Origin: Myxococcales bacterium | GTDB taxonomy: Bacteria; Myxococcota_A; Polyangia; Polyangiales; JAFGIB01 | Length of the DNA: 44,509 nt | Reading direction: 5' to 3' | NCBI GenBank assembly: GCA_028817855.1 | Contig: JAPPOT010000104.1 | Span: 1-44,509 of the forward strand | Shown: positions 7,377 to 42,069 of the stretch, piece by piece | How the letters are laid out: the number at the start of each line of letters is the position of its first letter | Numbering within the stretch: the stretch's first letter is position 1 | Notes under the pieces: model-generated | The model's database searches: none | Seen by the model: the letters and a program-made list of their open reading frames with translations, nothing else | Told to the model about the DNA's origin: nothing | Position numbers and translations under genes: made by a program

Positions 7377-7435
7377 GGGCAACGTGGCTGGAGTCGCTAC
7401 AGCGTCACTCCAGTAGCGGGTCCGCCTACAAGGAC

Positions 7436-7476
7436 ACAGAAGGCCGTTCCCCGAATGACGGGGGACGGCCTTTTGT
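7436..7476 (+). terminator. Rho-independent terminator after the ACAD pair
   Basis: AAGGCCGTTCCCCG-aatga-CGGGGGACGGCCTT hairpin ending in TTTTGT. Confidence 0.75.
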
Positions 7477-7564
7477 CGTTCACGACGCGCCAGTCTCCAA
7501 TGGTCATGAAGTTTTAATCAAGGGGGTGAGCCTCCGCAGGTGCGCCGCGGTACCATTGAGAGTG

Positions 7565-9373
7565 ATGCAAGACCTGTTGGGACGCAGGCTCCTTCATCGA
7601 CTCGGGCTCGGCGCGTGCTCGTTGCTGCTGCTTGCGGCATGCGGCGGTGCGATCGGCGGCGACCCGAGCGCGGTGGGCGGCCCGGGCAATGACCAAACGG
7701 GCCTCGATCGCGGCGATGGCAGCGAGCCGGGCCTAGGCAACCCGGGCGACGGCCCGCAGGACGGCAGCGGTCCGGGTGGTGTGCCGCCGGCCGAGGACAT
7801 CGCGGAGTGCGCGGACCGCGTGCTGCCGGACCAGCCCCTGCGGCGCCTGTCCTCGAGCCAGTACCACAACACCCTGCGCGACCTCTTCGGCGCCGAGCTG
7901 GCCCTGGACATGATCATGGGCTCCCTCTTCCCCGTCACGCAGATCGACAGCGGCTTCGAGGGCGACGCCGAGGCCAACGTGGTCAACACGGCCGAGAGCA
8001 ACGCCATCGAGGACAACGCCGCCCGCATCGCGGCCTCGATCGTGACCGGGCCGGACCCGTTCATGCAGAGCCTGTGCGGCCTGGGCGCCGGCTACGGCGA
8101 GGGCGACATCGACGGCTGCGTGGATGGCTTCATCGACGACTTCGGCGCGCGCGCCTACCGCCGGCCCCTGACCGAGGGGGAGCGCGGCATCGCGCGCAGC
8201 CTCTATGACGCCCTGCGCGCCGAGCAGCCGGCCGTGGAAGCATTCGCCGGGCTGGTGCAGCTCTTCGTCCAGGCCCCCGCCCTGCTCTACCGCGTGGAGC
8301 GCGGCGCCGACGAGGTCTCGCCGGGCCTGCTGCGCTTGACCGACCACGAGATGGCCTCACGCCTGAGCTACTTCTTCCTCGACAGCATGCCCGACGAGGA
8401 GCTCTTCACCGAAGCCGAGGCCGGCCGCCTGTCGACCCCCGCCGAGATCGCCACCCAGGCCGAGCGCCTGATGGCGTCACCCCGCTTCGAGGCGGTGCTG
8501 GCCAACTTCCACCGCGACTGGCTGCGCCTCTACGAGCTCGAGACCACCGCCAAGGACCCGGCGCTCTACCCCGAGTTCACCGAGGCCGTGCGGACCAGCC
8601 TGCAGGAAGAGGCCTCGCGCCTGGTCAACCACGTCATGCAGGACGGCGACGGCTCGATCGCGACGCTCCTGGGCACGCGCGAGATCCCGGTCAACGGCGC
8701 CCTGGCCACCTTCTACGGCACCGCCGGCGGCTCGGACCCCAACGCCTGGGGCCCGGCCGAGCTGGAGGACCGCCGCGGGCTGCTCACGCTCGCGTCGTTC
8801 ATGGCGACCCAGGCCGAGGCCGACAAGACCAGCCCGATCCACCGCGGGGCCTTCTTCCAGAGCGAGGTGCTCTGCAACCCGCTGCCGAACTTCCCCGGCA
8901 ACATCGACACCCAGACGCCGCTGCAGGACACCTCGATGCTCCCCACCGCCCGCGAGCGGCTCTCGCCCCTGCTGGCCGAGGGCTCCACGTGCGCCGGCTG
9001 CCACACCCTCTTCAACCCCACCGGCCTGGCCTTCGAGAACTACGACGCCGCCGGCCTGTGGCGCGACCAGGAGAACGGCGCCGCCATCGACGCCTCCGGC
9101 ACGGTCGAGCTCGACGGTGTGGAGCACGACTTCGAGACGCCGCTCGAGCTGATGGAGCGCGTCGCCGAGAGCGAGCAGGCCCGCGACTGCTACACGCTGC
9201 AGTGGTACCGGGCCGCTCTGGGGCGGCGCGAGTTCGCCGAGGACGCCTGCGGGCTGGAGCTGGTGCAGCAGGCCGCGTCGAGCAACGGCGGCGACATCCG
9301 CCAACTGCTGGTGGCCCTGACCCAGACCGATGGATTCCTCTATCGCACCGTCCCGACGGAGGTGGAGCCATGA
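7565..9373 (+). CDS. DUF1587/1595/1592/1588/1585-type lipoprotein with CxxCH motif
   Basis: LLLAA-C lipobox; LRRLSSSQYHNTLRDL, RAYRRPL, EMASRLSYFF.SMPD.EL, TSPIHRG, CAGCH, GLAFENYDAAG.WR. Confidence 0.88.
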   Translation: MQDLLGRRLLHRLGLGACSLLLLAACGGAIGGDPSAVGGPGNDQTGLDRGDGSEPGLGNPGDGPQDGSGPGGVPPAEDIAECADRVLPDQPLRRLSSSQYHNTLRDLFGAELALDMIMGSLFPVTQIDSGFEGDAEANVVNTAESNAIEDNAARIAASIVTGPDPFMQSLCGLGAGYGEGDIDGCVDGFIDDFGARAYRRPLTEGERGIARSLYDALRAEQPAVEAFAGLVQLFVQAPALLYRVERGADEVSPGLLRLTDHEMASRLSYFFLDSMPDEELFTEAEAGRLSTPAEIATQAERLMASPRFEAVLANFHRDWLRLYELETTAKDPALYPEFTEAVRTSLQEEASRLVNHVMQDGDGSIATLLGTREIPVNGALATFYGTAGGSDPNAWGPAELEDRRGLLTLASFMATQAEADKTSPIHRGAFFQSEVLCNPLPNFPGNIDTQTPLQDTSMLPTARERLSPLLAEGSTCAGCHTLFNPTGLAFENYDAAGLWRDQENGAAIDASGTVELDGVEHDFETPLELMERVAESEQARDCYTLQWYRAALGRREFAEDACGLELVQQAASSNGGDIRQLLVALTQTDGFLYRTVPTEVEP

Positions 9374-12285: not shown

Positions 12286-14019
12286 CTACTCGGCCCCCTC
12301 GCCGGGTATCTGGAAGAGTGCGCCCAAGTTGATCGATCCGTGCTCCGCCGGATCCTGGGGATCGGTGGTCAGCGGGTTGCCCGGATTCAGGTTGGAGGCC
12401 GTGTCGTCGGGTGGGAAGAGGACCAGCGAACCGAGGAAGGCCAGCACGGCCCGGCGGTCGGAGTCCGAAAGTCCGGCGAAGCGGTCGCGCACTTCGGCAG
12501 CCTCGCCCCCGTGCCGCAGGATCACTTCCTCGAGGTTGATGCTGCGGCCGTCGTGTCCGTAGGGCGCCGTCGTGCCCACGCCCCACAGGGGCTCGGTCAC
12601 GAACTCGGTGACGATCGAGCCGTCGTACTCGCGCTCGTGGAAGGCGGCCCCCAGATCGTGGCGCTTGAGGTCGCTGAAGATGTTCTCGACCACGAAGGAC
12701 TGCTCCTGCGGGAGCAGCTGGGGGAAGGGGTCGGCGTCTTCGATCACGTCGAAGCGGGTCGTCGCGGTGGCGAAGAGCCGGTTGAAGATGCCGTTGACCG
12801 GGTCGTGCACGGTCTCCACGTCGGCCACGCGGCGGTCACGGTCGATGGTGAGGTTCTGGATGTGGCAGCTGGTGCACCCGATCTCCTCCATCACCGCCAG
12901 CCCCTGATCGGTCTCGGCATCGGTGCGACCGCGGCCGGGCTTGAAGTAGTTGAGCAGGTAGAACTCCATGTGGTCGATCAGCGCAGGGTCGAGCTCGGCC
13001 GCGATGCCATCGCCGTCGCCATCCTCCAGCGCGTCGCAGACCGGCGGGCGCTCGAAGGTGTCGAGGGTTGGATCGAAGAGCATTCCCGCCGCCGACATCG
13101 CCACCTGCGGGTCGTCGGAGTCGGTGACGGCGCACAGGATCGGGTCCGCCGCCTCGAGACCCATCTCGGCCTTGAACGCACCGATCACGAACTCGCGAAT
13201 GGAAATCGTGCTGCCCTCCGCGAAGAAGGGTCGCACGCGCAGGTCTTCGTCGATGCCTTCCAGCTCCGAGAAGTCCACGGTCCCGTCGGGGAAGGCGGTG
13301 ATGCTGCCAAACTCGACGCCCTTCGCGCCCAGCACCCGCGTGACCGGCCCGGGCTCACCGCAGGGCTCGGGCTCCGGGGTCTCGCACACGATCGGCGGAC
13401 AGAAGAGCCCAAGGAGCTGACACAGGAAGCCCGGCTCGGACTGGTAGTCGCAGACCTCCTCCGGCGGATCTTCGTCGCACGGCACACCGGTCTCCGCCTC
13501 GACCAGCGCATCGGCCAGATCGCCGCGCAGCTCGGCGGTCATCTCATCCGCGAGCATCTCGACCAGACCGAGCCCGAAGAGATGCGGCGCGTCGCGGCTG
13601 TCCGGCCGCGTCACGACGTCACCGCCGAAGCCCGCCGCACCGCGCGGTCGACCGTGGCAGCCCGCACAGCTGTCGACCATGCCCGCGCCGAGTGCGCGCA
13701 TCTGCATGATGTCGCCCTCGCTGGTGGGGTTGACGCGCGGCCCGAAGCCCTGGGCCTGGGTGAACTTGCGCTGGAAGAGCTGCCGCCCGCGACGCACGGA
13801 GCGCGCCGGATCGCGCTTGATGAGATACACGGAAGACCCCGGCATCATGACATCGCCCTGACCGGCGCCGACCTGTTGTTCCAACGACTTGCCGATCTGC
13901 CCGCCGGCAATCGATGGGCTCGTCTGTGTGCTGTCGGTCAGCTGCGCATGCGCGCTCGTCACACCCAGGCAGAGAACAGCGATCGCGACGATTGAAATTG
14001 TGGTTGTCGTGTTCCGCAT
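12286..14019 (-). CDS. Secreted di-heme oxidoreductase (DHOR)-family protein
   Basis: Signal peptide ending AHA-Q; SCAGCH and GCTSCH; RDAPHLFGLG, FSDLKRHDLG, TEPLWGVG..PYGHDGRS..EVILRHGGEA. Confidence 0.88.
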   Translation of the reverse strand: MRNTTTTISIVAIAVLCLGVTSAHAQLTDSTQTSPSIAGGQIGKSLEQQVGAGQGDVMMPGSSVYLIKRDPARSVRRGRQLFQRKFTQAQGFGPRVNPTSEGDIMQMRALGAGMVDSCAGCHGRPRGAAGFGGDVVTRPDSRDAPHLFGLGLVEMLADEMTAELRGDLADALVEAETGVPCDEDPPEEVCDYQSEPGFLCQLLGLFCPPIVCETPEPEPCGEPGPVTRVLGAKGVEFGSITAFPDGTVDFSELEGIDEDLRVRPFFAEGSTISIREFVIGAFKAEMGLEAADPILCAVTDSDDPQVAMSAAGMLFDPTLDTFERPPVCDALEDGDGDGIAAELDPALIDHMEFYLLNYFKPGRGRTDAETDQGLAVMEEIGCTSCHIQNLTIDRDRRVADVETVHDPVNGIFNRLFATATTRFDVIEDADPFPQLLPQEQSFVVENIFSDLKRHDLGAAFHEREYDGSIVTEFVTEPLWGVGTTAPYGHDGRSINLEEVILRHGGEAAEVRDRFAGLSDSDRRAVLAFLGSLVLFPPDDTASNLNPGNPLTTDPQDPAEHGSINLGALFQIPGEGAE

Positions 14020-21453: not shown

Positions 21454-22731
21454 TCACTCCTCGACCATCTCGGCGTTGCAGAGCCGGAGCGCAACGGGAC
21501 AGTCCAGGCGCTGCAGGTGGGCGTGGTTGTCGTCGGTGTCGCTCCACGCGAGGACAACGTGTCCATCGTCGGTGGCGACCAGATCGGTCGGCCCGCCGGC
21601 CCGGCTGGTCGGCGTCACCTCGCCTTCGTAGACGATCTCGCCCGTGGCGGTCATGAAGGCGATGCGGATCGCGTTGTGCGGGAAGTCGCGCGAGGTGAGA
21701 GATCGGTAGCTGAGCGCGTAGCCCCTGCCGAAGGGGACGATCGCGACGTCGCGCAACACGGCGGGGGGGTGCTGCACGGAGCGCGGCTCGAGCATCACGT
21801 CTCCGTCGAGCCCGAACGGCCGGTAGCGCACCAGCTCGGCGTCCTCCACGCGATAGCTGTAGGCGACGGCCCCGCTCTCCTCCCCCGAGGCGATGTCGAA
21901 GGCCCCGCTCACGGTGTCGGCCAGGACGACCGGCTCGTCGTCTTCCAGCGCGTGCATGGACAGCGTGTCGCCGCTGGACCACGCCAGCCACACGCTCTCG
22001 CGGAGCAGCGCTAGCGCGGCGTGCTGCACTGGATCGGAATCGACCAGCAGGTCGCGATAACTGACGTCGGCCGGGTCGTCATGTGGGTACTGGGCGAGCG
22101 TGAGGCCGTCGTCGCCCTGCACGGTCAGGTGGATGCTGCCATTGGCGGCGAGCATGCTGGTCGTGCGGCCGCTTGGGCTGGTGTCCAGCGGCGCGGGCGC
22201 TTCAACCGACTCGCCCTCGAGGTCGACCCGTTCCACGTGCAGCTCGCCCTCGCGCCAGAAGCTCAGCGCAAAGCCATCGTCGACCGCCACGATGCGCACG
22301 CCCGAGGAGCCCTCGGAGCCCTCCTCGCGCACGCCCGGCTCCGCGGCGCCCGAGAGGGACAGCAGCCGAAAGGCTCGCTCACCGATGTCATCGTGGTACG
22401 CGAGGGCCATCGTGCCGCCGTTCTGGGCGAGGCTGACCCCCGTGGCGCCGGTGCTCGCAGGGAAGGCCATCGAGTCGTCGTCCTCATAGGTGCAGAGAGT
22501 CTCGCCGGAGAGATCGACCAGGACGTTCGCGCCCTGGGGCACGGGCACGGGCACGGCGGCGTCCGGCTCGTCCGTGCCTCCGCGCGTGGGCACCCGGTCC
22601 CCGCCACTGGGGACGGGCGCCATCTTCTCGTCATCCCCCCCACACGCGAGCAAACCCACCGCGAGCCCCACGGCCGCCACCGCAGCCCAGCAGCCACTCG
22701 GGATCGATCGTGGTGACTTGAACGTGCTCAC
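21454..22731 (-). CDS. Lipoprotein, probable beta-propeller
   Basis: GLLA-C lipobox; repeated blades MALAYHD, FALSFWRE, VWLAWSS, YALSY, VVLAWSD. Confidence 0.7.
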   Translation of the reverse strand: MSTFKSPRSIPSGCWAAVAAVGLAVGLLACGGDDEKMAPVPSGGDRVPTRGGTDEPDAAVPVPVPQGANVLVDLSGETLCTYEDDDSMAFPASTGATGVSLAQNGGTMALAYHDDIGERAFRLLSLSGAAEPGVREEGSEGSSGVRIVAVDDGFALSFWREGELHVERVDLEGESVEAPAPLDTSPSGRTTSMLAANGSIHLTVQGDDGLTLAQYPHDDPADVSYRDLLVDSDPVQHAALALLRESVWLAWSSGDTLSMHALEDDEPVVLADTVSGAFDIASGEESGAVAYSYRVEDAELVRYRPFGLDGDVMLEPRSVQHPPAVLRDVAIVPFGRGYALSYRSLTSRDFPHNAIRIAFMTATGEIVYEGEVTPTSRAGGPTDLVATDDGHVVLAWSDTDDNHAHLQRLDCPVALRLCNAEMVEE

Positions 22732-22747
22732 GGCGTACTCCCCATGG

Positions 22748-25700
22748 TCAGTCCGGGATCTCGCAGGTGTAGGTCACGTCCCAGTAGTCTAGCGTGGGTG
22801 CCGCCGTGCGCGCAGAGTTCGCTCGCAGGTCGATGGCGTAGCGAGTCCACGGGAGTCCGAGCTCACTGGTGGGGAATACGGTGGCGATGTCGGGCGAGCC
22901 GTCCGTGCCCACGCAGATGCCGTTCTGGCACTGCAGCCCGGCTGGGCACTCCGGGTCCATCGTGCACGTCACGGACGAGCTGAAATGGATGCACACGTCG
23001 TTCGGCGTGATGTTCGGCAACGTGTCCGCGCAGACCGTGCTGGACGAGCAGCCGCCGCTGCACAGCCCCATCGCGCCGACGATCACGACGGCGTTCACGC
23101 TACAGCCGGCGAGCTGCGCCTCGGTGCCGGCAGCGCACGCGCCGACCCAAATCGAGGTCCCGTCGGGCACGTGGGCCTTCATGTACAGGCCCTGCCAGTC
23201 GGGCCGAAGATCGTCGGGACAGGCCCGCGCCTCGAGCGTCTGCAGGTAGGTGCCATCCTCGGGGACCTGCGGGTCCAGATCGCCGTTGGGTACGAGCAGG
23301 ACCGGCACCTCCTCCAGAAGGTAGGTGGGCCCGCCGGCCACACCGGGCGTGTTGCCGACCATCTGGAGCACGAAGGCGTAGGCACCGTCGGCCCGCGAGG
23401 GGTTGTCCGGTACGTTCCCCGGCACCGGCGGGTTTTCGAATGTGATAGCGAAGCTGGGCATCTCGCCCGCCTGACAGCGCAGGTAGGTGGTCCCGCTGAC
23501 GCCGTCGCACAGGGTCGCATCGTCGGGCGCGATGGTCGTGGTGAACGGATTCGGATCGAGGCTCGGATCGGTGGACTGGTCCACCACCTGCCAGGTCACG
23601 TCGAGCGCGTAGTGCTGCGCCAGGTCGTTGATGCCCGCCATCACCTGAGTGCCGAGGTCCGAGCCGTCGGCCTGACCGACGTAGCTCAGGGGCTGCATGC
23701 CGGTTCCCGGGTCGACCTCCGCCCGACTCGCAGTGGCGAGCGCATCCGCGTCGCTCCTGGCGGCCGTGCAGTCCGCGCCGCTGCCGCTGCAGCTGACGAC
23801 GCTGGCCACGCGCACATCCTCGGCGTTGAGCGCAGACAGGGCGTCGGCGTAGGTCGGCGGCGTGTACGAGAACGGCGTAGGCTCGTCGCCCACGAGCAGA
23901 CGGTAGTCGCCCTGCTCACCTGCTCCACCGCCCTTGACCACCGCATAGTAGGTGCCATTGCCGAGGTCGTACTGGCTGATCTCCGAGTGGGTGACGCTAC
24001 CGCTGGCGTCGTCGTTGCAGGTCAGGCGCGCGTCGTCCTCGGCATCGCGGATGCGCAGGTTGTACGCGCCGCTCTCGCCTGAACCCTTGCCCTTGACCAC
24101 GATGTAGTAGGTGCCGGGGTCCAAGGGACCCGTGCTGATGCTCGAACGCACGCCATCGGCAGCACCGTCGTCGTCGCAAGCCACGCGCTGCACGGACCCG
24201 GCAACGACGTTACCACCGTTGTTCAAGACGTCCTGCCCCTCCGGGTTGGCGCAGACCGCCGGAGAGTTGTTCTCGCAGAACGACCGACAGCCCGTGTCCC
24301 CGGCCTCGCCCTCGAGGCAGATGCACGCGGCGTTGCTGCTGCAATCGAGCCCGACGTCGATCGTGGACGGGTCGCGCCGAAGGACGCAGAGGGAGTCGTC
24401 GTCGCAGTCGCTGGAGCCCTTGCCGCAGTCCGAGTTGCTGCCGCACTCGATCTGCAGCGTGGCGTCGTCATTGACGTCGAACTCGCCGATCTCGCCGTTG
24501 TTGTGCACCATGTAGCAGAAGGAGTTGCCCTCGCAGTTGATGTCGGTGTCGTCGTGCGAGGGCGCCGTGGGTCCGAAGTCGAAGCCACACTTGGTGTTGT
24601 CCTCGCAGTACATCGAGTCGAACTCGACCGAACCCGCTGCGATGACCTGGACATAGAAGGTCGAGTCTCCGCGGACGTTGACGTTGTCGAGCCTCACCGT
24701 CTGGCCCGGCGCGTTGATGACGAAGACACAGGTCGAGCCGTTGAGGCAATCCACGTCGTCGAGGCGCGGGTTGCTGCCGGTGAGGTAGAAGCCGCACCAC
24801 CCGTTCGGCGAGCCGCTGTCGCACGCCCAGTCCTGATTGCACGACCCGCCGTTGCACAACACGCCGTCGCCGTTGCGGTTCCAGTCGTTCCAGCCCTCCT
24901 CGAAGAACTCGTCGTAGGGCACCCAGCCCGTCCACGACGTGGCGACGGGCTCCACGTGGTCCCGGAACAGCGCGATCACCGTGTCGAAGCTGCTGCCCAC
25001 GGTGTCGATCGTCAGGTCGGCACCGGAGGCGCCCACCTCGAATTGGTAAACGGCGTCTGGAGCGCTGGAGTCGTTGCCGAGGCAGCCCATCAAGTTGGAG
25101 CCGACCTCGTTGCCGAGGCCGCTGCTGTTCGCGCCGCTGAGGCTGAGGTCGTAGCCACCGATCTCGGTGCCGGCGGCCGGCAGCTCGAAGCCCTGGACCT
25201 CGGTGTCGGTCAGCGAGTTGTTCGCGATCGGGACCGTCACCGACGTCAGGATGATCGGCAGGTCGTCGTGCAAGGAGACGACCGTGTCGAAGCTAGAGCC
25301 CTCGGTGCTGAGCGTGATCGGCGTGGTGGCGCCGGCGGCCAGACCGGAGATCGTGAGCTCGTGAACGATGTCACCGCTCGTTCCGTCGGCATCGCAGCTC
25401 ACCACACTCGCGGGAAGGGTCGCGGCGCTGGTCGTGCCGAGGTACTCGGTCCAGGTCGTGGTCACATCGCCCAGGTCCTTCGGGTCGACGAAGGTCCCGG
25501 CGCCCGACTGGGCCGTGAGGTCGACGCTCGTGCTCGGCGGTATTGGAGCCTGGAGCGACGCGGCGTAGTCGTAGCCAGCGGTCGGACCATTGTGGAGCGG
25601 ACGGTCGGTGAGCACCACGACGAGCGCGACCGCGTCATCGCGAAAGCACGGGTAGCCGCGCGTCCCACTCGGGCAATCGGTGCGCGCGGCCAGACTCGGG

Positions 25701-26692
25701 TTGCCCGGCCCCACGTCGAAACCGTCCTGCGTGGCGAGCGCTTCGAGCGCGACGATCTGTGACGTCGCCACATCACCGAAGGACGTGAGGTCCTCGGTGC
25801 CCAGACCGGAGAGCGCGCTCTCGGTCAGCACGCCGTCGGCGTCCATATCCTGGACGTGGGAAAAGGCAACCTGGCCCGCGCCCGCATGGGGCGAGAACGG
25901 GATCTCGCGGAAGTAGCCCGCGCCAAACCAGGGGTCCCGGGCGACACAGCGGACGCCTTCGATCAAGCCGGTTCCGTGGGCGTCCGGCGAGCCATCTCCA
26001 TCACGGTCTACGCAGGTGTTGGCACCGACGTAGTCGGTGGCGCTGGTCAGCTCGGCGGTCAGGGCCGCGAGCTCCTGCGACATCGAGTCCTCGAGGTCGA
26101 TCAGGAAGTAGACGTCGACCTTGTTCAGGCTCACGGGGAGCGAGTCGAGCAACGTCGTGACCTGCTCGCCGGGGAGCAGCGTGGCGATGATCGGTGGGTT
26201 ATTGCCGCTCACCGACGGCGGCGACGTGCCCGGCGGCAGACCGTCCTCACCAGACTCGAGGGTGATCCCCATCGGATCGGCATAGATGAGGCCGCCTGTG
26301 GAGTTGCTGCCGTCCAAGGGGCCGTCGGCGGGGTCCAGGTCATCGGTCGCTTTGAAGCATCGGACGTTGCAGGTGTCGCAGTTCGGCACCCCGCCGTCTT
26401 CGTCGCGTTGGTCGTCGATCAGGGCGTGCGTGCTACCCGCCGTGTCGGCGGCGTAGGTCTGGAGATCCGTGCAGGCGCTCCAGATGCCGTCCAGGCAGTA
26501 GCGCGTGCCCTCGACGCACAGATCGGGGTCATCCTGCTCGTCCGGGAAGCAGGGCTGCTGCTGACCGTCGATGCAGCTGCAGCCTTCCTCCGGGCGCACG
26601 CAGCGACGGTCGTGGCCGTCTGCCTGGGGCTGCGGGGGCGCCTCGATGCAGGCGCCGACCAGCGTCACCAGCAACAGAGCGACCCCTCTCAT
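22748..26692 (-). CDS. Large Cys-rich surface lipoprotein with VWA domain, two PPC-like domains and a Cys-rich insert
   Basis: Start MRGVALLLVTLVGA-C; VDVYFLIDLEDSM (MIDAS-like), FGAGYFRE, PCFRDDA..VVVLTD; two SFDTV and two GTYY.VVKG motifs. Confidence 0.8.
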   Translation of the reverse strand: MRGVALLLVTLVGACIEAPPQPQADGHDRRCVRPEEGCSCIDGQQQPCFPDEQDDPDLCVEGTRYCLDGIWSACTDLQTYAADTAGSTHALIDDQRDEDGGVPNCDTCNVRCFKATDDLDPADGPLDGSNSTGGLIYADPMGITLESGEDGLPPGTSPPSVSGNNPPIIATLLPGEQVTTLLDSLPVSLNKVDVYFLIDLEDSMSQELAALTAELTSATDYVGANTCVDRDGDGSPDAHGTGLIEGVRCVARDPWFGAGYFREIPFSPHAGAGQVAFSHVQDMDADGVLTESALSGLGTEDLTSFGDVATSQIVALEALATQDGFDVGPGNPSLAARTDCPSGTRGYPCFRDDAVALVVVLTDRPLHNGPTAGYDYAASLQAPIPPSTSVDLTAQSGAGTFVDPKDLGDVTTTWTEYLGTTSAATLPASVVSCDADGTSGDIVHELTISGLAAGATTPITLSTEGSSFDTVVSLHDDLPIILTSVTVPIANNSLTDTEVQGFELPAAGTEIGGYDLSLSGANSSGLGNEVGSNLMGCLGNDSSAPDAVYQFEVGASGADLTIDTVGSSFDTVIALFRDHVEPVATSWTGWVPYDEFFEEGWNDWNRNGDGVLCNGGSCNQDWACDSGSPNGWCGFYLTGSNPRLDDVDCLNGSTCVFVINAPGQTVRLDNVNVRGDSTFYVQVIAAGSVEFDSMYCEDNTKCGFDFGPTAPSHDDTDINCEGNSFCYMVHNNGEIGEFDVNDDATLQIECGSNSDCGKGSSDCDDDSLCVLRRDPSTIDVGLDCSSNAACICLEGEAGDTGCRSFCENNSPAVCANPEGQDVLNNGGNVVAGSVQRVACDDDGAADGVRSSISTGPLDPGTYYIVVKGKGSGESGAYNLRIRDAEDDARLTCNDDASGSVTHSEISQYDLGNGTYYAVVKGGGAGEQGDYRLLVGDEPTPFSYTPPTYADALSALNAEDVRVASVVSCSGSGADCTAARSDADALATASRAEVDPGTGMQPLSYVGQADGSDLGTQVMAGINDLAQHYALDVTWQVVDQSTDPSLDPNPFTTTIAPDDATLCDGVSGTTYLRCQAGEMPSFAITFENPPVPGNVPDNPSRADGAYAFVLQMVGNTPGVAGGPTYLLEEVPVLLVPNGDLDPQVPEDGTYLQTLEARACPDDLRPDWQGLYMKAHVPDGTSIWVGACAAGTEAQLAGCSVNAVVIVGAMGLCSGGCSSSTVCADTLPNITPNDVCIHFSSSVTCTMDPECPAGLQCQNGICVGTDGSPDIATVFPTSELGLPWTRYAIDLRANSARTAAPTLDYWDVTYTCEIPD

Positions 26693-26823: not shown

Positions 26824-28266
26824 TCATGGCGTCCAGCACGCGTAGGTGAATGTCTCCGCATCGTCGACATCGCCGTCGGCATCGCCGTCGCGCGCAATGG
26901 AGAGCAGGTTGCCCGCGCTGTCGTACATGCGCATCTCCACAGCCACGACCGTGGTGCCATCGGCGTTCAGATCCACCTCGATGGACAGCAGTCGTCCCGC
27001 GCTGTCGTAGGTGTGGCGGGTGATGCGATCGACGGATCCATCGCCGTCTCCATCGCGCTCCTCGGTCAGCAGGCGGTCCCCGTCATCGTAGTCGTATTCG
27101 ATCATGTACACGACGTCGCCGCTGTCATCGGCGTAGTGGGTGTGGGTCGCGAGCAGCCCGCCGACGTACATGTAGACATCGCGCGACTCCAGCACGCCAT
27201 CCTCGAGCTCCTCTTCCGTGAGCAGATTGCCGTCGGCATCGTAGGTGCGCACCTCCACCGGCATGCCCGTGGCCCCCTCGTCGACCGATTCCGACTCCAA
27301 CGTTCCGCCAGCCGCATAGGTCCACGTCACCACGCGATCGGCCATGTCGTCGGCGTCCTCGTCGAGTGTATGGCTCAGCGGTCGGCCCTCGCCGTCATGG
27401 GTCCAGGTCTCGCGACGCACCACGGTGCCGGGATCGCCGAGCAAGCGCTCCTCGGTGAGCAGGTTGCCGTCGCCGTCGTAGGTGAAGACGCGCGACTCGT
27501 CGATGGGTGCGTCGCCCAGGTCGCGGTCGATCTCGATGCGCGTCAACCGGCCACTGTCGTACATGTGCGTGGTGCGCTCCTCGAATTGACCGTCCCCATC
27601 GCGATCTCGCCGAATCAGGTCGAGCCGCCCGTCGCTGTGGTAGGTCCACTCAGTGCGGTCCAGCTGCGTGCCGTCGTCCAGCACGTCGAAGACCTCGCTT
27701 AGCTTGGCGCCGGCCGCGTCGAAGGTCGTATCCAGATCGACCGTGTCGTCTGCATCCCAGTCGAGCCGGGAGCGAACCACGCGCCCCGCGTCGTCGTAGT
27801 CGGTGCGGGTGCGCTCGTCCGCGGTGCCATCCGCACCGGCAGCGCCCGAGCCGTCGCGCGAGTCCCGCTCCTCCAGCGTGACGCGGTCGGCCCCGTCGTA
27901 GCCTAGCGTCACCCGCTCGTCGATCTCGCCGTCGTTGCCGAGATCCTTCTCGTGGATGCAGGGCCCCGCGTAGAGCTCTGGATCGGGAGCTGAGGCGTCC
28001 GGAGTCTCCGCGTCTGCCGTGGAGCCGTCGCGCGGGTCGGAGCCGTCGGGGCCGGTGTCGCCCGATTGCGGGTCGCCGCCGTCCGGGCCGTCGCCGTCCC
28101 CCCCGGCGTCCATCTCGCCGCCCGGCCCATCGTCTCCGTCACCAGTGCCAGCGTCTGGACCCCCAGTGCCGACCGTGTCGGCATCACTGCTGTCGTCGCC
28201 GCACGCACCCAACAGCACGATGAACGCCAACATCAACCCGCGTCGTACACCCAAGGACCCCGCCAT
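26824..28266 (-). CDS. Lipoprotein with YD-like repeats carrying DxDxDG loops
   Basis: VLLGA-C lipobox; roughly 15 repeats of ~24 aa (YDxxGxLLxEExDxDGDGxxD). Confidence 0.8.
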   Translation of the reverse strand: MAGSLGVRRGLMLAFIVLLGACGDDSSDADTVGTGGPDAGTGDGDDGPGGEMDAGGDGDGPDGGDPQSGDTGPDGSDPRDGSTADAETPDASAPDPELYAGPCIHEKDLGNDGEIDERVTLGYDGADRVTLEERDSRDGSGAAGADGTADERTRTDYDDAGRVVRSRLDWDADDTVDLDTTFDAAGAKLSEVFDVLDDGTQLDRTEWTYHSDGRLDLIRRDRDGDGQFEERTTHMYDSGRLTRIEIDRDLGDAPIDESRVFTYDGDGNLLTEERLLGDPGTVVRRETWTHDGEGRPLSHTLDEDADDMADRVVTWTYAAGGTLESESVDEGATGMPVEVRTYDADGNLLTEEELEDGVLESRDVYMYVGGLLATHTHYADDSGDVVYMIEYDYDDGDRLLTEERDGDGDGSVDRITRHTYDSAGRLLSIEVDLNADGTTVVAVEMRMYDSAGNLLSIARDGDADGDVDDAETFTYACWTP

Positions 28267-28505
28267 GGCCGATCGTCTTATCACCTGGGAGGCGACCAAG
28301 CCGCCCGGCGATGCTCCCAGTTTAGATACAGTTATGATCCAGAACGCAGTTCCTTCAAACATCCCGCAGCAGGGGAAATCACCACGGGGCACAGAACTCC
28401 CTCAAAAAAGCACATCTGCCCTGCAAGGTTAAGCTCTCGCTGGCCACTCCTGACCCGTCAATCGGGCCCGGATCGCAGCAAAGCCGACAACGCGGGTGCG
28501 CGCCG

Positions 28506-29408
28506 CTATTGCTCGTCGTCCCCAGAAGCGACGCGACAGCGGTTGTTGGTGCAGACCATGCCGTCGGGGCAGCCATCGTCGGCGTCGCTGCAGTCGAGGC
28601 GACACAGACCGGTGCCGCCCATGCTGCAGCCGGCCTCGATGCTGCCGCTGGAGGGCGCTTCGGTGCAGTCCTCGCTGCTCTCGCAGGCCTGTGTGCAGAA
28701 TCCAGCTCCCGCGCCGGGCCCAGGGCCCTGCGCGGCGTTGCAGACCAGATCGCCGGCGCAGTCCGCGCTGGACTCGCAGCGCTCGAACGCACCCGCGGTC
28801 GCCAGGACGTTCGCGGGATAGTTGCAGCGGTTGCCGAGGCACTCCATGCCCGCGGGGCAGTCGCCGTCGTCCTCGCCTCCGCACTCCACGCGGCAGGCAT
28901 TGCGCCCCGAGGAGCAGGTGTAGGTCGCGCCGGTGAGCGCGCCGCAGCCCCCGTCGTCCGTGCAGCTGGCGGTGCAAAAACCGACCTCGTCCGTCGTGTA
29001 GCAGGCCAGCCCCATGTTGCAGTCGCGGTCGGACTCGCACAGCGCACCCTGGTTGCCGTCGCGTGCAGGCATGAACGCGGGCTCGGGGTCGGGCTCCGCC
29101 TCATCGTCCTGCCCTTCGTCTCCGCCTTCGCTGCCGTCGCCGTCACTGGCCGCGCCATCATCTTGCGCGCCGTCGTCGGTCGCGCCGTCGTCGCCCGCGG
29201 GCTCGTCGGCGCTCCCGGAGCTAGACGACGTGTCCGAGGCATCGTCCGTGTCCGTGCCCTCGTCGCCGCCGTTGGGCGCTGCCGCCGCGTCCGCGCTGCC
29301 GCCATCGCCCCGGGGGCAGTCCTCCCCGCTGCAATCGTCGCTGTCATCGCCGCAAGCCACGCCGCCTGCCAGCGCCAGGCAGATTCCGATCACCAGACCA
29401 TGTCGCAT
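28506..29408 (-). CDS. Cys-rich repeat lipoprotein
   Basis: MRHGLVIGICLALAGGVA-C; acidic linker; CESxxDC and CxxxC..DCPxGMxC repeats. Confidence 0.78.
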   Translation of the reverse strand: MRHGLVIGICLALAGGVACGDDSDDCSGEDCPRGDGGSADAAAAPNGGDEGTDTDDASDTSSSSGSADEPAGDDGATDDGAQDDGAASDGDGSEGGDEGQDDEAEPDPEPAFMPARDGNQGALCESDRDCNMGLACYTTDEVGFCTASCTDDGGCGALTGATYTCSSGRNACRVECGGEDDGDCPAGMECLGNRCNYPANVLATAGAFERCESSADCAGDLVCNAAQGPGPGAGAGFCTQACESSEDCTEAPSSGSIEAGCSMGGTGLCRLDCSDADDGCPDGMVCTNNRCRVASGDDEQ

Positions 29409-29833
29409 CTCAACCACCCTCCCGTTCCCTGGGGTGCTTAAACCGGCTTTCGGCGCCCCGCGGTACCGGAGTCTTGGTCCGGCAGTTTCACGGGGGGTGG
29501 GCACCGATACCGCGCCTTGGGCGGCGCGCCTCGACGCGCTTGCGTAGTCGCACTACGAGCCACTCCGGCCCGCGAAGCTGGCCGTTCGCGACAAGCCCTG
29601 TGCTTGCGGCGTCACGATCCATCGACACGTGAGGCAAACGATCTCGCACCACGGTACCGCCGATCCTGCCATGTGACACCGACTGCCAACCGAGGCGCGC
29701 CCTAGGCAGGTCCGGCTTCGGTGACGAGACGCGCGACGGTGCTGCAGCGTGACGTCTGGCGATTCGCTGCGAGACAGGGCAGAGTCGCGAGCACTGGCTC
29801 GTCGCGTCGCCCCGCTTTCGCCTCGCCGTCCTC

Positions 29834-37184: not shown

Positions 37185-37414
37185 GAGCTGCGGCCGCGTC
37201 TGAACGCCGTGGGCATGCCGGCGGCTGTCCCAAATTGTGGGTCGCCCTGTTCTTGACGCACGAGGCCAACACCGCCCGCGGCTGTCCCGCACTGGGAGTG
37301 GTGATCGACCCCCGCAGCTCGCATGGTTGCTCTGCTGTGGAGAGGCGGCTTCACGAGCGGTCGCGGGGGGCTCGCGGCACCAGGCGGCGGGTCCGCCGAT
37401 CGCTCACGCTGCGC

Positions 37415-38353
37415 ATGGGGCTGTCGCTGGCCCTTGCCCTGTGCGCCGCGCTTGCGCCGCCGGCGGCGCGTGCCGACGAGCGGGACGCGCCGACCGGGCC
37501 GGGCTCCGAGTACGCGCGGGTGATCGCCCAGGCGGTGGAGGAGTTCCGGCTGCAGCACTGGCAGGAGGCGATCGTGCTCTTCGCACGCGCCCACCGTCTG
37601 TCACCGAGCGCGCGCACCCACCGCGGCCTTGGGCTCGCCTCCTTCGAAGCGCGGCAGTACGGCCGCGCCCTGAACCACCTGCGCGCCGCGCTGTCGGAGC
37701 GGCGCCGCCCACTGACCGAGGCCCAGCGCGCCGAGGTCCGCGCAGCCATCGACCGCACACTGACGCTGGTGGGCGAGCTCCACCTGCATGCACAGCCCGC
37801 CGAGAGCGCCCTGATCATCGACGGCGCACGGCGGCCCTGGAACGGCGAGCTGATCGTGCTGATCGCCGGCGAGCACACCATCGAGCTGCATGCCCGCGGG
37901 CACGAGCCGGCGCGCAGGGTGGTGGAGGTCACCGCCGGCGAGCGCCTCTCGCTCACGCTGAGCCTGACCCCGCGCACCCAGGAGCTGGGCGTCGCCAGTG
38001 GCGCCGAAGCGGGCCTGCGGACGGATGCGCCCAGCGACCCCGGCGCCTGGCCGTGGGTGGTCATGGCGGCCTCTGCCGGTGCGGCGGTCGGCGGAGGCCT
38101 GCTATTCGCGCAGGCTCGCAGCGACATCGCCGAGGTGAAGGACACCCCCCGCGGCACACGCTGGGAAGAGGTCGAACAGACCCACGACGGCACCGCGCTC
38201 AAGTCCGGCCTCGGGCTCGCGCTGCTGGGCGTGGGCGTTGCGGGCGCTGCGACGGGCCTGGTCTGGGCGCTGTCATCGAGCGACGACGACGACAGCGCAG
38301 CGCTGGACGTGTCGGCGGCGCCGGGCGCGCTGCATTTCCGGGGGCGCTTCTGA
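37415..38353 (+). CDS. Secreted TPR + PEGA domain protein with C-terminal TM hairpin and terminal Phe
   Basis: Signal ending ARA-D; WQEAIVLFARAHRLSP TPR; LIIDG..GEHTIELHARGHEP PEGA; ends FRGRF. Confidence 0.82.
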   Translation: MGLSLALALCAALAPPAARADERDAPTGPGSEYARVIAQAVEEFRLQHWQEAIVLFARAHRLSPSARTHRGLGLASFEARQYGRALNHLRAALSERRRPLTEAQRAEVRAAIDRTLTLVGELHLHAQPAESALIIDGARRPWNGELIVLIAGEHTIELHARGHEPARRVVEVTAGERLSLTLSLTPRTQELGVASGAEAGLRTDAPSDPGAWPWVVMAASAGAAVGGGLLFAQARSDIAEVKDTPRGTRWEEVEQTHDGTALKSGLGLALLGVGVAGAATGLVWALSSSDDDDSAALDVSAAPGALHFRGRF

Positions 38354-40056
38354 TGCGCGGTCCATCGCCGGCGATCCAGCACCTGGGGCTCGGACTCGCC
38401 CTGTGCACCGCGATCGCCTGCAAGGCCACCCTGCCCGATGGGGTCTTCGCCTGCGAGCAGGACGCGGACTGCCCGACAGGTTTCGACTGCCTGAGCGACA
38501 CGGACGGCGCGCGCTATTGCTACCGTCCGGGCAACGAGCCCGTGGCGCCGGGCCCAACGGGAACGGCCGACGCCGGGGACGGCCAGGGCGGCGACGGGGA
38601 TGGCGACACGGGCGGCGACGGCGACACCGGCGACGATGGCGACGCGTCGATGGACGGCGGCCGTGGCACCGCCGGTGGCGACGGGAACAGCGACGGCGGC
38701 CGGGACGGCGGCACCGGCGAGGGCGAGCCCCCGACTTGCGCCGACGATCACGGGGGCTGCGATCCCCTCGCCGAGTGCACCGATGGCGCGGACGGCCCCG
38801 AGTGCGGGCCGTGTCCAGTCGGCTACCGGGGCGACGGCGCCCTCGGCTGCACGGCCCTGTCGACGGTTCAGTTCGGCACCACGCTGTCCGAGTCGGCGCT
38901 CGGCGCCGTCAGCAATGGGGACGGTGACGTCTACATCACGGGCTACACCGAGGGCGCCATGGAGCCAGGGTCGTGGCTGGGCAAGGACGACGCCTTCCTC
39001 GTCAAGTACGACGCCGCCGGGACACGGCAGTGGCTCCGTCAGTTCGGCACCTCGGAGAACGACATCGGCTGGCACATCGCTATCGATGACGCCGGCAGCG
39101 TCTACGTCGTCGGCTTCACCGGCGCTTCCCTGGATGGGCAGACCTTCGCGGGCGGCGCGGACTTCTTCGTGACCAAGTACGGCAGCGACGGCACACGCGC
39201 GTGGACGACCCAGTTCGGCGGCGATCGCTGGGACATCGGCAGCGCCATCGCGGTCGATGGCGATGGCAACGTCTACGTCGCCGGTCGCACCGACGGCGAG
39301 ATGCCCGGCGAGGACGCCGCCGGCGCCGAGGACATCGTGGTGGCCAAGCTGGCCCCCAACGGAGATCTGCTGTGGGTCCAGCAACGCGGCACGACCTCGC
39401 GCGACGAGGGCCACGCCATCACGGTCGATGGCGATGGCAACATCTACGTCGCGGGCTTCTCCACCTCCAGCCTCGATGGCAACAGCCACGTCGCCGACTT
39501 CGACAGCGTGCTGCTCAAGTTCGACCCGGACGGCAACTGGCAGTGGACCCGCCAGTGGGGCACCGCCGGCGTCGATCACGTGCGCACGCTGCTGAACAAC
39601 GCCTCTGGCATCTACGTGATCGGCCACGCGGGGGGTGATGTCGAGGGCGTCCAGGGCCTCGGCGATGACGACGAGCTGATCGCGCTCTACGACGCCGACG
39701 GCAACCGCGAGTGGCTGCGGCTGACCGGTACCGCCGATCACGACGACACACGCGGCGCCGTGCTCGACGCGGACGGCAATCTCTACGTCAGCGGCGCGAC
39801 CGAGGGCTCGCTGCCGGGCTTCGAGCATCAGGGCTACCTCGATGTCCGCGTGACCAAGTACTCGCCGACGGGTGCCGAGCTCTGGACGCGACAGCTCGGC
39901 ACGGCCGGGCAGGACGAGGCCCGCGCGATCGCCCTCGACCCGACCGGCGGCGTCTACGTCCCCGCCAACATGGAGGCCTCGGTCGACGGCCGTCCCTTCC
40001 TCGGCGTTCGCGACGTGGTGCTGCTGCGCTACGACGCGGACGGCGAACGGCGCTAA
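38353..40056 (+). CDS. Lipoprotein with EGF-like module and SBBP beta-propeller repeats
   Basis: TAIA-C lipobox; CADDHGGCDPLAEC..CGPCPVGYRGDG; seven IAVDxxGNVYVAGxT/FxxKY repeats; TGATG coupling to the PEGA gene. Confidence 0.88.
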   Translation: MRGPSPAIQHLGLGLALCTAIACKATLPDGVFACEQDADCPTGFDCLSDTDGARYCYRPGNEPVAPGPTGTADAGDGQGGDGDGDTGGDGDTGDDGDASMDGGRGTAGGDGNSDGGRDGGTGEGEPPTCADDHGGCDPLAECTDGADGPECGPCPVGYRGDGALGCTALSTVQFGTTLSESALGAVSNGDGDVYITGYTEGAMEPGSWLGKDDAFLVKYDAAGTRQWLRQFGTSENDIGWHIAIDDAGSVYVVGFTGASLDGQTFAGGADFFVTKYGSDGTRAWTTQFGGDRWDIGSAIAVDGDGNVYVAGRTDGEMPGEDAAGAEDIVVAKLAPNGDLLWVQQRGTTSRDEGHAITVDGDGNIYVAGFSTSSLDGNSHVADFDSVLLKFDPDGNWQWTRQWGTAGVDHVRTLLNNASGIYVIGHAGGDVEGVQGLGDDDELIALYDADGNREWLRLTGTADHDDTRGAVLDADGNLYVSGATEGSLPGFEHQGYLDVRVTKYSPTGAELWTRQLGTAGQDEARAIALDPTGGVYVPANMEASVDGRPFLGVRDVVLLRYDADGERR

Positions 40057-40173: not shown

Positions 40174-42069
40174 CTACCACTGGGTGTCGAGCCAGGCGGC
40201 GCGCTCGAGTAGCCAGGTGCGCATGAACTCGATCTGCCCCTCCCAGGTGGCCTCGGTCGGGGTCTGGAAGGGGCCGACACTGGGGCTCTGAAGGTTGGGC
40301 CAGCGCTCGAAGTTGCGCGCGGCCGCCGCCGCGATCGGCGCGCTCAGGGCGTCGATGCGCTCGCCTATCGCCGCGTCCGAGAGCACATCCTGACGCAGCG
40401 CGCGCCAGCGCTGGGCGACCAGCTCGACGAAGGCGGGATCCTGCATCAGGCGGAAGTGCCAGTCCGTGTTGACCGGGTCGCGCTGCTGCTCGTACTGCCA
40501 GCCGGCGATCTGGTCGTTCTCGAAGAAGCCGCCCACGCCGGCCGCCAGGTTGTAGTCCCACAGGGGCCCGGCGAAGATCTTGGTGTCGCGGTCCTTGTAG
40601 TAGTAGGCGCTGCGAATGTACGCGTCCATCTCGCGTCCCAGCTCGTTGACGATCAGCTGGTCGACGAACGACTGCGTGTCGATGAAGGCGGCGTAGCCGG
40701 CGATCGGGTCGGCAAAGCCCTGCCCTTGCAGTGCGTCGTGAAACTCCTGGATGTGCTGGGTGAGCCACTGTTGCTGCTCGGCAATGAGCGGGCTCGGGTC
40801 GACCACCTCCAGGTCGAGCCAGCAGCCGTTGGTCTCCGCCATCGGCTGACCTGGAAAGCCAAAGCCCCCCTGACTCGAGGTCGAGCTGGAGGCACCGGCA
40901 CACAGCAGCGTCGGCTCCTCGGCGGCGCGCCACTCGAACTTGAAGATGTAGCCGCCGCTGATGGCGGGCAGCGCCGTATCAGCCGCCGTCAGCTGCTGGA
41001 GGTCGAGGCGGTTCTTGTTGTTCTTGATCGTCTCGAGGATCAGATAGACGCCCATGTAGTCCGCCTCGCTCACCGGCCGGCTCGCGGTGTTGAGGTAGAC
41101 CTCGGCGAAGGCGAAGCGCGGGGCGGCCATCCCCATGGCCGCACCGGTGGCATAGAAGAAGGCGTCGCGGATCAGGGCCTTGTCCGCGAACGGACCGCGC
41201 AGGGCCCAGTCGGCCTCCGCCGGCAGCCCGAGCAGCGGCCAGTCCAGATCCTCGTCGGCGTTGTCGCGCAGCTCGACCCGGTACGGGGTCTTGTCGAAGC
41301 TGGCGGTCGACTGGCCGCGGATGTGGAAGCCCGCGCGCGAGGCCACCTGGGGCGTGGCGGCCAGGCTCGCGGCGCCCGCCTCGAGCTCGAAGGCCATGAA
41401 GGCCACGTCCACGTAGTCGCGGGGCTCGTTGCTCAGCGGCCCGGCGCCGTAGTTGTCCAGCAGGACGATGGGCAGGTCGTGCTCCGGATCGAAGGAGCGC
41501 GCGATGTAGAGCGCGGTGCCGGCACCTGGGATCGCCTGACCATCGACGAAGGCCTGGGCGCGCACCTGCGTCGTCTGGGTGAGCTGGATCGGCCCGGCGA
41601 AGGCCTGCGAGCTCGCCGAGGGCGGCTGGCCATCGAGCGTGTAGCGGACCTCCACGCCGTCGGCCGTCGCCCCGGGCGCGAGCGCGAGGCTGAGCTCGAG
41701 CTGCCCCACGAAGGTGCCGCTCGGCACCGAGAACTCGATGCTCCCCTGCAGCTGCTGCTGGGCGCTGTCGAGGACGTCGTCGGCTGCGGGCGCGGGCTCC
41801 TGCGCGGCATCGCCCGGGCCGGGCGGCTGCGCGGGAGCTTCGGTGGCAGGCTCGTCACCCGCGCCATCACCCGCGGTGGTCTGTCCCGGCGCCTCCGAGC
41901 CGGCGCGCGGCTGCGCGTCGCCCGGCCCGTCCATAACGGGGCCACCGCCGTCGGCATCGTCATCGCACGCGATCAGCGTCAGCGCGAGGAGCGCCACAGC
42001 CAGCGGGCCGCGCCGATGGATCCGACGAAAATGCCGGAGATCACCGGGGTCAGCTGTCAGTCCTTGCAC
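40174..42069 (-). CDS. CotH-family kinase lipoprotein with chitobiase/Fn3-associated domain
   Basis: LTLIA-C lipobox; RYTLDGQPP; IRGQST, KTPYRVE, DKALIRD, YMGVY.ILE, EMDAY..SAYYYK, GPLWDYNLAAG; start is approximate. Confidence 0.88.
   Translation of the reverse strand: MQGLTADPGDLRHFRRIHRRGPLAVALLALTLIACDDDADGGGPVMDGPGDAQPRAGSEAPGQTTAGDGAGDEPATEAPAQPPGPGDAAQEPAPAADDVLDSAQQQLQGSIEFSVPSGTFVGQLELSLALAPGATADGVEVRYTLDGQPPSASSQAFAGPIQLTQTTQVRAQAFVDGQAIPGAGTALYIARSFDPEHDLPIVLLDNYGAGPLSNEPRDYVDVAFMAFELEAGAASLAATPQVASRAGFHIRGQSTASFDKTPYRVELRDNADEDLDWPLLGLPAEADWALRGPFADKALIRDAFFYATGAAMGMAAPRFAFAEVYLNTASRPVSEADYMGVYLILETIKNNKNRLDLQQLTAADTALPAISGGYIFKFEWRAAEEPTLLCAGASSSTSSQGGFGFPGQPMAETNGCWLDLEVVDPSPLIAEQQQWLTQHIQEFHDALQGQGFADPIAGYAAFIDTQSFVDQLIVNELGREMDAYIRSAYYYKDRDTKIFAGPLWDYNLAAGVGGFFENDQIAGWQYEQQRDPVNTDWHFRLMQDPAFVELVAQRWRALRQDVLSDAAIGERIDALSAPIAAAAARNFERWPNLQSPSVGPFQTPTEATWEGQIEFMRTWLLERAAWLDTQW

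Follow-up and report, generated by a model that had tools for sequence, protein, structure and literature searches.

A predicted Polyangiales lipoprotein with an integrin beta-like head and a predicted stalk of nested PPC half-domains

The stretch of DNA analysed here, referred to as the window, comprises 44,509 nucleotides (nt) of contig JAPPOT010000104.1 from a Myxococcales bacterium (assembly GCA_028817855.1). Within it, a single minus-strand open reading frame (ORF), with its ATG at 26692, encodes a predicted lipoprotein of 1,314 amino acids (aa), here called the window protein. The original prediction had described it as a VWA domain carrying two PPC domains and a Cys-rich solenoid, each inserted into the one before. 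In this study, we place the protein in a beta-integrin-like family and suggest that its halved PPC domains form a nested stalk on an integrin-like head.

The gene and its integrin beta-like head

The features of the locus are as follows (all on the minus strand).

22748..26692: full-length gene encoding P0001 (1,314 aa), a predicted lipoprotein from the beta-integrin-like family
26648..26692: signal peptide with a lipobox-like end, VGA-Cys15, judged by eye from the sequence and not by a predictor
26126..26224: hybrid (Ig-like) domain, N part, residues ~157-189; hidden Markov model (HMM) match to integrin beta-6 chain residues 83-132, with the VIA-align match starting at model position 46, which is residue 157
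25568..26125: VWA (beta-I-like) domain, N part, residues ~190-375; degenerate MIDAS (the adhesion site dependent on a metal ion), DLEDS, and DVAT at the family DxPE
25259..25540: PPC1 N half (outer layer), residues ~385-478; half-domain HMM match at 421-477
24956..25255: PPC2 N half (inner layer), residues ~480-579; half-domain HMM match at 526-578, Pfam PPC positions 4-42 of 70
24215..24955: tip domain, residues 580-826; begins Trp-rich and continues as a predicted Cys-rich beta-helix (residues 608-798)
24041..24205: PPC2 C half (inner layer), residues ~830-884; half-domain HMM
23882..24040: PPC1 C half (outer layer), residues ~885-937; half-domain HMM
23606..23878: VWA domain, C part, residues ~939-1029; from HMM, uninserted relatives and structural alignment
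23282..23605: hybrid domain, C part, residues ~1030-1137; the VIA-align match ends at model position 1026, which is residue 1137
22751..23257: beta domain at the C-terminus, conserved, with an inserted Cys-rich segment, residues ~1146-1314; fold not identified
21454..22731: downstream gene after a 16-nt gap, predicted 425-aa lipoprotein with a seven-bladed beta-propeller, candidate partner

The motifs on which the original prediction relied all lie in this one frame, in the order it gave and within ~30 nt of the places it assigned. They start at 26119 (VDVYFLID), 25612 (LTDRP), 24178 (CDDDG), 24115 (GTYYIVVKG), 24019 (CNDD), 23956 (GTYYAVVKG), 23854 (TYADALSAL) and 23815 (VRVASV), with SFDTVVSLHD at 25294-25265 and SFDTVIALFRD at 24991-24959. 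The Cys-rich insert, put at ~240 aa, corresponds to residues 580-820, which are 241 aa with 20 Cys. Searched as a single sequence, the window protein found no match among PDB sequences and none in NCBIfam. An RNA look-up listed no holder. Its relatives were taken as the best 150 of 3,109 matches, plus further retrieved loci; those with names belong to Polyangiales, Sandaracinaceae and SG8_38-type Myxococcota genomes. Five full-length relatives share the same order of parts at 56-66% identity to the window protein, which, together with the one open frame, rules out a frameshift or mis-assembly artefact.

A profile built from the sequence preceding the insert matched the heads of integrin beta-6, -8, -3, -1, -7 and -2 in the PDB (best E 2.5e-6), and the match takes in the strand of the hybrid domain as well as the beta-I motifs. 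The profile of the C part gave no meaningful PDB match. An AlphaFold2 model of residues 112-1311, built from an alignment of 42 sequences, has a mean predicted local distance difference test score (pLDDT) of 83 and a predicted template modelling score (pTM) of 0.55, and every listed row of a Foldseek search with this model was a beta integrin. VIA-align recognised one VWA domain over residues 188-1031 (integrin beta-6 5ffg_B, Z 21.7, root-mean-square deviation (rmsd) 2.7 Å, 212 of 248 residues aligned) and the pair of hybrid and beta-I domains across residues 157-1137. The first six matches were beta integrins and the seventh the Pactolus I-domain, with Z of 19-23; the next VWA scored 15.9. 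In the model, the VWA of the window protein is thus a single discontinuous domain that is itself nested in the hybrid domain, so that a beta-I-type VWA lies within a hybrid beta-sandwich, as in beta-integrin-like head proteins of the CglD kind. The split VWA of the original prediction stands, as do its inner layers; an outer split hybrid layer (residues ~157-189 and 1030-1137) had been overlooked, and the order becomes hybrid[VWA[PPC1[PPC2[tip]]]].

The MIDAS of the window protein is degenerate, with DLEDS in place of DxSxS. The pattern Dx[ST]xS is found in none of the six members of its subfamily and in 110 of 149 family sequences, and the family motif DxPE has likewise lost its Glu, both in the window protein (DVAT) and in the sister clade of the subfamily. 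The adhesin-like base proposed earlier is therefore kept as an integrin-beta-like head, but since the MIDAS is degenerate this base may not itself be the adhesin. No transmembrane helix or cytoplasmic tail was seen in the window protein, whose C-terminus is a beta domain ending in YTCEIPD.

Both chain ends of the model (window 26255-26359 and 22751-23257, residues 112-146 and 1146-1314) are confident beta structure, and conserved Cys residues lie near residues 112 and 1310. It may be that the N-terminal strands round off the domain at the C-terminus, in which case a sixth nested layer would exist.

Insertion site, depth and pairing of the half-domains

PPC domains (PF04151) are usually contiguous, arranged in tandem and found at the C-termini of proteases. 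Here, they are split at one loop and nested. In the window protein, Pfam PPC matches with positions 4-42 of 70 only (residues 548-588, 17.4 bits, E 0.008, under the cut-off), a partial match because the domain is split; the uninterrupted innermost domain of relatives matches positions 4-70, and the full profile was matched in P0058, P0034, P0021 and P0062. We made separate HMMs for the N half and the C half and rendered each protein as a string of brackets. Each of the four halves in the window protein scored 42-60 bits, and on reversed sequences (538,950 residues) nothing reached 12 bits, the best score being 7.2.

The site of insertion is fixed. In uninserted relatives, HNGP is joined to the next helix by a loop of 10-15 aa, and one-layer relatives hold an intact PPC domain at the same VWA loop, as successive insertion into one loop, proposed in the original prediction, would have it. 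The stalk departs from the loop after the motif aligned with VSDADSHFG of beta-6; in beta integrins, the alpha-contacting Arg lies here. DNA similarity between like halves of the window gene is confined to patches of ~50 nt, which rules out a recent tandem duplication.

Among the relatives, this loop holds every depth from 0 to 8 (0, 1, 2, 3, 4, 5, 6, 7 and 8 layers), and giant members go far deeper. Of 144 distinct complete proteins with both VWA parts, 125 have equal numbers of N and C halves, 18 are off by one and 1 is off by three; among the 64 proteins in which a kind of half occurs at least twice, the two counts agree in 48 and differ by one in 15 (r 0.96). Six complete giants measure ~6,700-10,900 aa across the VWA. 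Their N/C counts were 41/40, 41/40, 42/40, 32/32, 40/40 and 28/29 with the first HMMs and 40/40, 40/39, 42/38, 32/32, 40/39 and 28/29 with rebuilt ones, at depths of 18-28 with repeating side branches. Depth also differs between close kin: the sister proteins P0022 and P0034 have 7 and 4 layers, and in a quick tree of 129 of 144 rows (VWA score at least 120) the two-layer subfamily of six is sister to a four-layer clade (Shimodaira-Hasegawa-like approximate likelihood ratio test (SH-aLRT), 91). The genome of the window itself also carries a four-layer paralogue, an uninserted paralogue and fragments of giants. Nesting depth and the tip domain, which an alignment of homologues was expected to compare, thus both vary.

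Two further arrangements were seen. On G002:C75 at ~19,800-111,300 (L027-L032), three paralogous genes of ~10,000 aa each stand in tandem, with ~40 N and ~40 C halves apiece and near-identical bracket strings. In P0062, P0070, P0041 and P0104, the same VWA loop holds tandem arrays of intact PPC domains, ()()(), or mixes of nested and tandem domains.

Which N half belongs to which C half was scored as the top-10 average-product-corrected mutual information (APC-MI) over 198 half pairs from 42 pure nests. The nested pairing reached 0.187, compared with 0.099 for the parallel pairing and 0.110-0.118 for shifted controls, which preserve relatedness; 200 random pairings gave 0.097 ± 0.006, at most 0.113. 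The strongest coupling joins the Asp of the FDT motif with the Asp-Asp of the C half, an acidic pair, and the odds ratio between this Asp and the D/N motif is 30 for nested and 2.1-2.8 for other pairings. With the contiguous innermost domains removed, the remaining 173 split pairs share 4 of their top 20 couplings with 244 contiguous PPC domains, and other pairings share 0. Scored protein by protein, nesting is preferred in 35 of 42 nests. Moreover, when the layers are matched to four-layer relatives, the outer N half falls on layer 1 in all six subfamily members and the inner C half on layer 3 in five of them.

Across the family, these sequence comparisons favour nested over parallel or shifted pairing. 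Repeated insertion of same-family domains, each into one loop of the one before, is accordingly a property of the family, and by family inference it very likely extends to the window protein, whose halves taken alone do not score that way. The nested pairing of the original prediction thus stands for the family and reaches the window protein indirectly.

The tip, the neighbouring genes and the proposed working

All six members of the subfamily retain the tip (residues 580-826), which opens with a Trp-rich segment (6/6) and continues with C-x5-6-C repeats. Its residues 608-798 in the model resemble a SufB-type beta-helix (9h78_B, Z 13.2, rmsd 3.0, 180 residues aligned, 6% identity); a beta-helix is thus the predicted fold of the Cys-rich tip and agrees with the solenoid proposed earlier. 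Other members of the family have no tip, or have C-type lectin, LamG or RCC1 propeller modules. By eye, the N-terminal part of a giant paralogue (L005, G000:C833, 1-8000) also bears a regular Cys-rich solenoid and C-type-lectin-like and LamG-like modules inserted among its N halves.

The split head, the insertion site, the balance of halves from 0 to ~27 layers, the family-wide nested pairing and the exchange of tips were all computed. We argue that the window protein is probably a surface lipoprotein whose integrin-beta-like head carries nested PPC halves as an out-and-back stalk, displaying a predicted beta-helix tip that is likely a ligand-binding adhesin module. The protein would be anchored by lipid at Cys15 on the outer surface, by analogy with CglD, with the integrin-like head as base, perhaps together with the propeller. 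The chain would leave the VWA loop and form the first half of every PPC layer on its way outward; the tip would fold next, and the layers would be completed on the return path, each pair of halves possibly joined by a calcium-type site made of the FDT Asp and the Asp-Asp of the C half. The stalk would be extended, its length set by the number of layers and its specificity by the tip. Binding would then be a matter of the tip rather than of the degenerate MIDAS, and the loss of the MIDAS in the tip-bearing clade fits such a move, though as one evolutionary event only. Since simple tandem duplication gives ()() and not (()), layers would be gained and lost as matched pairs of N and C halves; this could come about if copies of the gene, such as the three tandem giants, underwent a misaligned double crossover.

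It is conceivable, though we hold the idea only tentatively, that the window protein acts as the beta-like subunit in a receptor made of two, in the style of an alpha/beta integrin head, with the adjacent propeller lipoprotein as the other subunit and the stalk and tip as accessories; the idea is compatible with the nested stalk. Downstream, the propeller gene follows on the same strand after 16 nt, and its product is predicted to be a seven-bladed propeller with a pTM of 0.87. Of 21 medium-size loci in which both VWA parts are present, 16 have a propeller homologue next to the family gene. Such homologues were also found in all 14 genomes of the same family and in 28 of 41 genomes overall, some copies lying away from family genes. 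The propeller HMM was built from such medium loci, and the 21-locus set may overlap with the 80 loci fetched by the VWA motif alone, of which 22 have a propeller homologue, every one within 1.5 kb and on the same strand. Against a two-subunit receptor, the other 58 of these 80 loci have none, and the genome of the window has five propeller-bearing contigs, some of them short, without a family gene. Nor does the propeller resemble integrin alpha more than it does other seven-bladed propellers: it resembles CylK (Z 31.6), the PLL lectin (26.8) and integrins alpha-4 and alpha-M (25.3), the last level with WD40 proteins, none of 16 aligned propeller members matches any Pfam FG-GAP family at E 0.1, and no PDB match was found by sequence. 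In addition, the stalk exits after the VSDADSHFG equivalent, at the loop with the alpha-contacting Arg of beta integrins; in uninserted members this loop is short.

Between the propeller and VWA genes of L061 lies a Cys-rich lipoprotein gene (6,850-7,867), and gaps of ~1 kb likewise occur in L046-L048, L056-L059, L063 and L065. These gaps suggest a three-gene cassette. Upstream of the window gene, on the same strand, are a YD/RHS-repeat lipoprotein (26824-28392) and a Cys-rich lipoprotein (28506-29504); they were rejected as partners, having no match in 45 related loci, and clustering of neighbouring ORFs was dominated by shadow ORFs. The remaining genes recognised in the window, an SBBP propeller lipoprotein (37237-40056, plus strand), a CotH kinase (40174-42069, minus), a DUF1592-family protein (7088-9373, plus) and a di-haem oxidoreductase (12286-14019, minus), are ordinary myxobacterial content.

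Alternatively, the stalk could be a mechanical or calcium-dependent spacer, or a force-bearing spring at adhesion sites, with the tip as a structural cap and not a ligand binder. Many seven-layer members have no tip whatever, the two positions most strongly coupled between halves are both acidic, and CglD, whose function depends on calcium according to the accessible text of its report (10.1101/2023.10.19.562135), belongs to a type of protein for which a like role has been proposed. We regard this as unlikely: tips, where present, are often lectin-type or propeller modules, the Trp-rich segment is retained in 6/6 subfamily members, and no gliding genes were recognised among the scanned ORFs of the window.

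Several points weigh against the nested stalk with a binding tip. The pTM of the model is 0.55 and stretches of the tip fall below a pLDDT of 50; for a repeat fold, a Z of 13.2 lies at the borderline. No relative of the tip was found outside the subfamily among the collected sequences and the genome of the window, the Atlas gave no usable match, and 242 candidates in proteins shorter than 722 aa gave none, longer proteins not having been searched for the tip; the ligand of the tip is therefore a guess. Exact balance is absent in 16 of the 64 multi-half proteins. In P0093, a divergent insert was overlooked by the half-domain HMMs, so that at least one insert was missed; some of the gaps between N and C counts are such divergent halves, and some halves may be unpaired. 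As the sequences are kin and not independent, the statistics overstate the signal, and no p-values are given. Innermost domains of the proteins under test were among those on which the coupling score was trained, and the folding alignment contained one-layer relatives whose halves were aligned by their flanks, a bias to nesting. In the layer matching, the inner N half and the outer C half are each split 3:3. Lastly, the coupling score of the window protein prefers the parallel pairing (-28.6 versus -16.3 for nested), as do those of 4 of 6 subfamily members.

That the halves do pair in parallel (first N with first C, second N with second C), giving two crossed domains side by side and no stalk, which a chain with two layers is long enough to allow, is in our view very improbable, given that the register of the family is nested, that the outer N and inner C halves fall on layers 1 and 3 of the sister clade (6/6 and 5/6), and that both layers of the window protein bear the same motif type, which leaves the coupling score little power here.

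Comparison with known systems

Fibrillar adhesins are described as domains in a tandem row. In a nested stalk, both chain ends lie at the base, so that any domain could be plugged in at the tip or at side branches. Profile searches see only half-domains, and such proteins are consequently annotated as hypothetical. A wider picture is possible, if doubtful: Polyangiales may build adhesin stalks by recursive self-insertion, as length-tunable, branched, double-stranded rods up to ~27 layers deep (10,000 aa) with plug-in tips and a head docked on the co-encoded propeller lipoprotein, which would make a bacterial counterpart to the alpha/beta integrin head, and such a stalk-building rule may not have been described for surface proteins. 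These proteins raise the questions of how folding proceeds when the second half of a domain comes thousands of residues after the first, by what route both halves of a pair are gained or lost at once, and whether beta-integrin-like heads of bacteria have a propeller partner. A nested stalk would also be a natural scaffold for the display of loops in protein design.

We found no description of this family in the literature covered, from which subscription journals were mostly missing; the supplement of the CglD preprint, a homologue survey, may list members. CglD (MXAN_0962) of Myxococcus xanthus is a surface adhesin with the same kind of head, which needs calcium for its function; like the window protein, it is a myxobacterial lipoprotein with a beta-integrin-like beta-sandwich and VWA. 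In the accessible text (10.1101/2023.10.19.562135), CglD has an N region of 12 DxDxDG repeats, COMP-like, and a putative intact MIDAS, is tied as an outer-membrane lipoprotein to the Glt gliding machinery, and is not described as having a nested PPC stalk. The window protein, compared with CglD by description only, has one DxDxDG (DRDGDG, within the VWA), no Pfam TSP_3 match, a degenerate MIDAS, a lipobox-like Cys15 judged by eye and a nested insert of 560 aa. Lacking both the repeat region and an intact MIDAS, it is not classed as a CglD.

Like the window protein, the integrin beta head (5ffg_B, 4um9_B, 9p96_B) has its beta-I domain inside a hybrid domain and is in that respect already a nest (Z 19-23, HMM E 2.5e-6). 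The window protein differs in its predicted N-terminal lipid anchor, in the stalk in the beta-I loop and in having only a candidate for an alpha partner.

Recursive insertion of one domain family into itself is known from Si3 of the cyanobacterial RNA polymerase beta' subunit, in which SBHM repeats form an elongated body of 150 Å (PMC10895346). Its six levels are the deepest example named in the accessible part of a 2026 ECOD survey of 2.7 million domains (PMC13114784), far below the ~27 of the present family. From what these sources describe, Si3 has an unrelated fold, is intracellular and has 8 repeats, whereas members of the family span depths of 0 to ~27, can branch sideways, have tips that are exchanged and in some cases carry tandem forms in the same VWA loop. 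A five-domain nest, IPT3[PA14[FCD1[FCD2[MAM]]]], has been predicted at the N-terminus of fibrocystin (10.64898/2026.10.19.758525), which is likewise a surface protein; one of two similar domains sits inside the other there, and the tip is of a separate kind. Fibrocystin is an animal protein with other folds, for which the accessible text describes no variable depth. The family described here is real and combines known ingredients, a CglD-type head and recursive nesting; it is striking for its depth, its variability and its branching.

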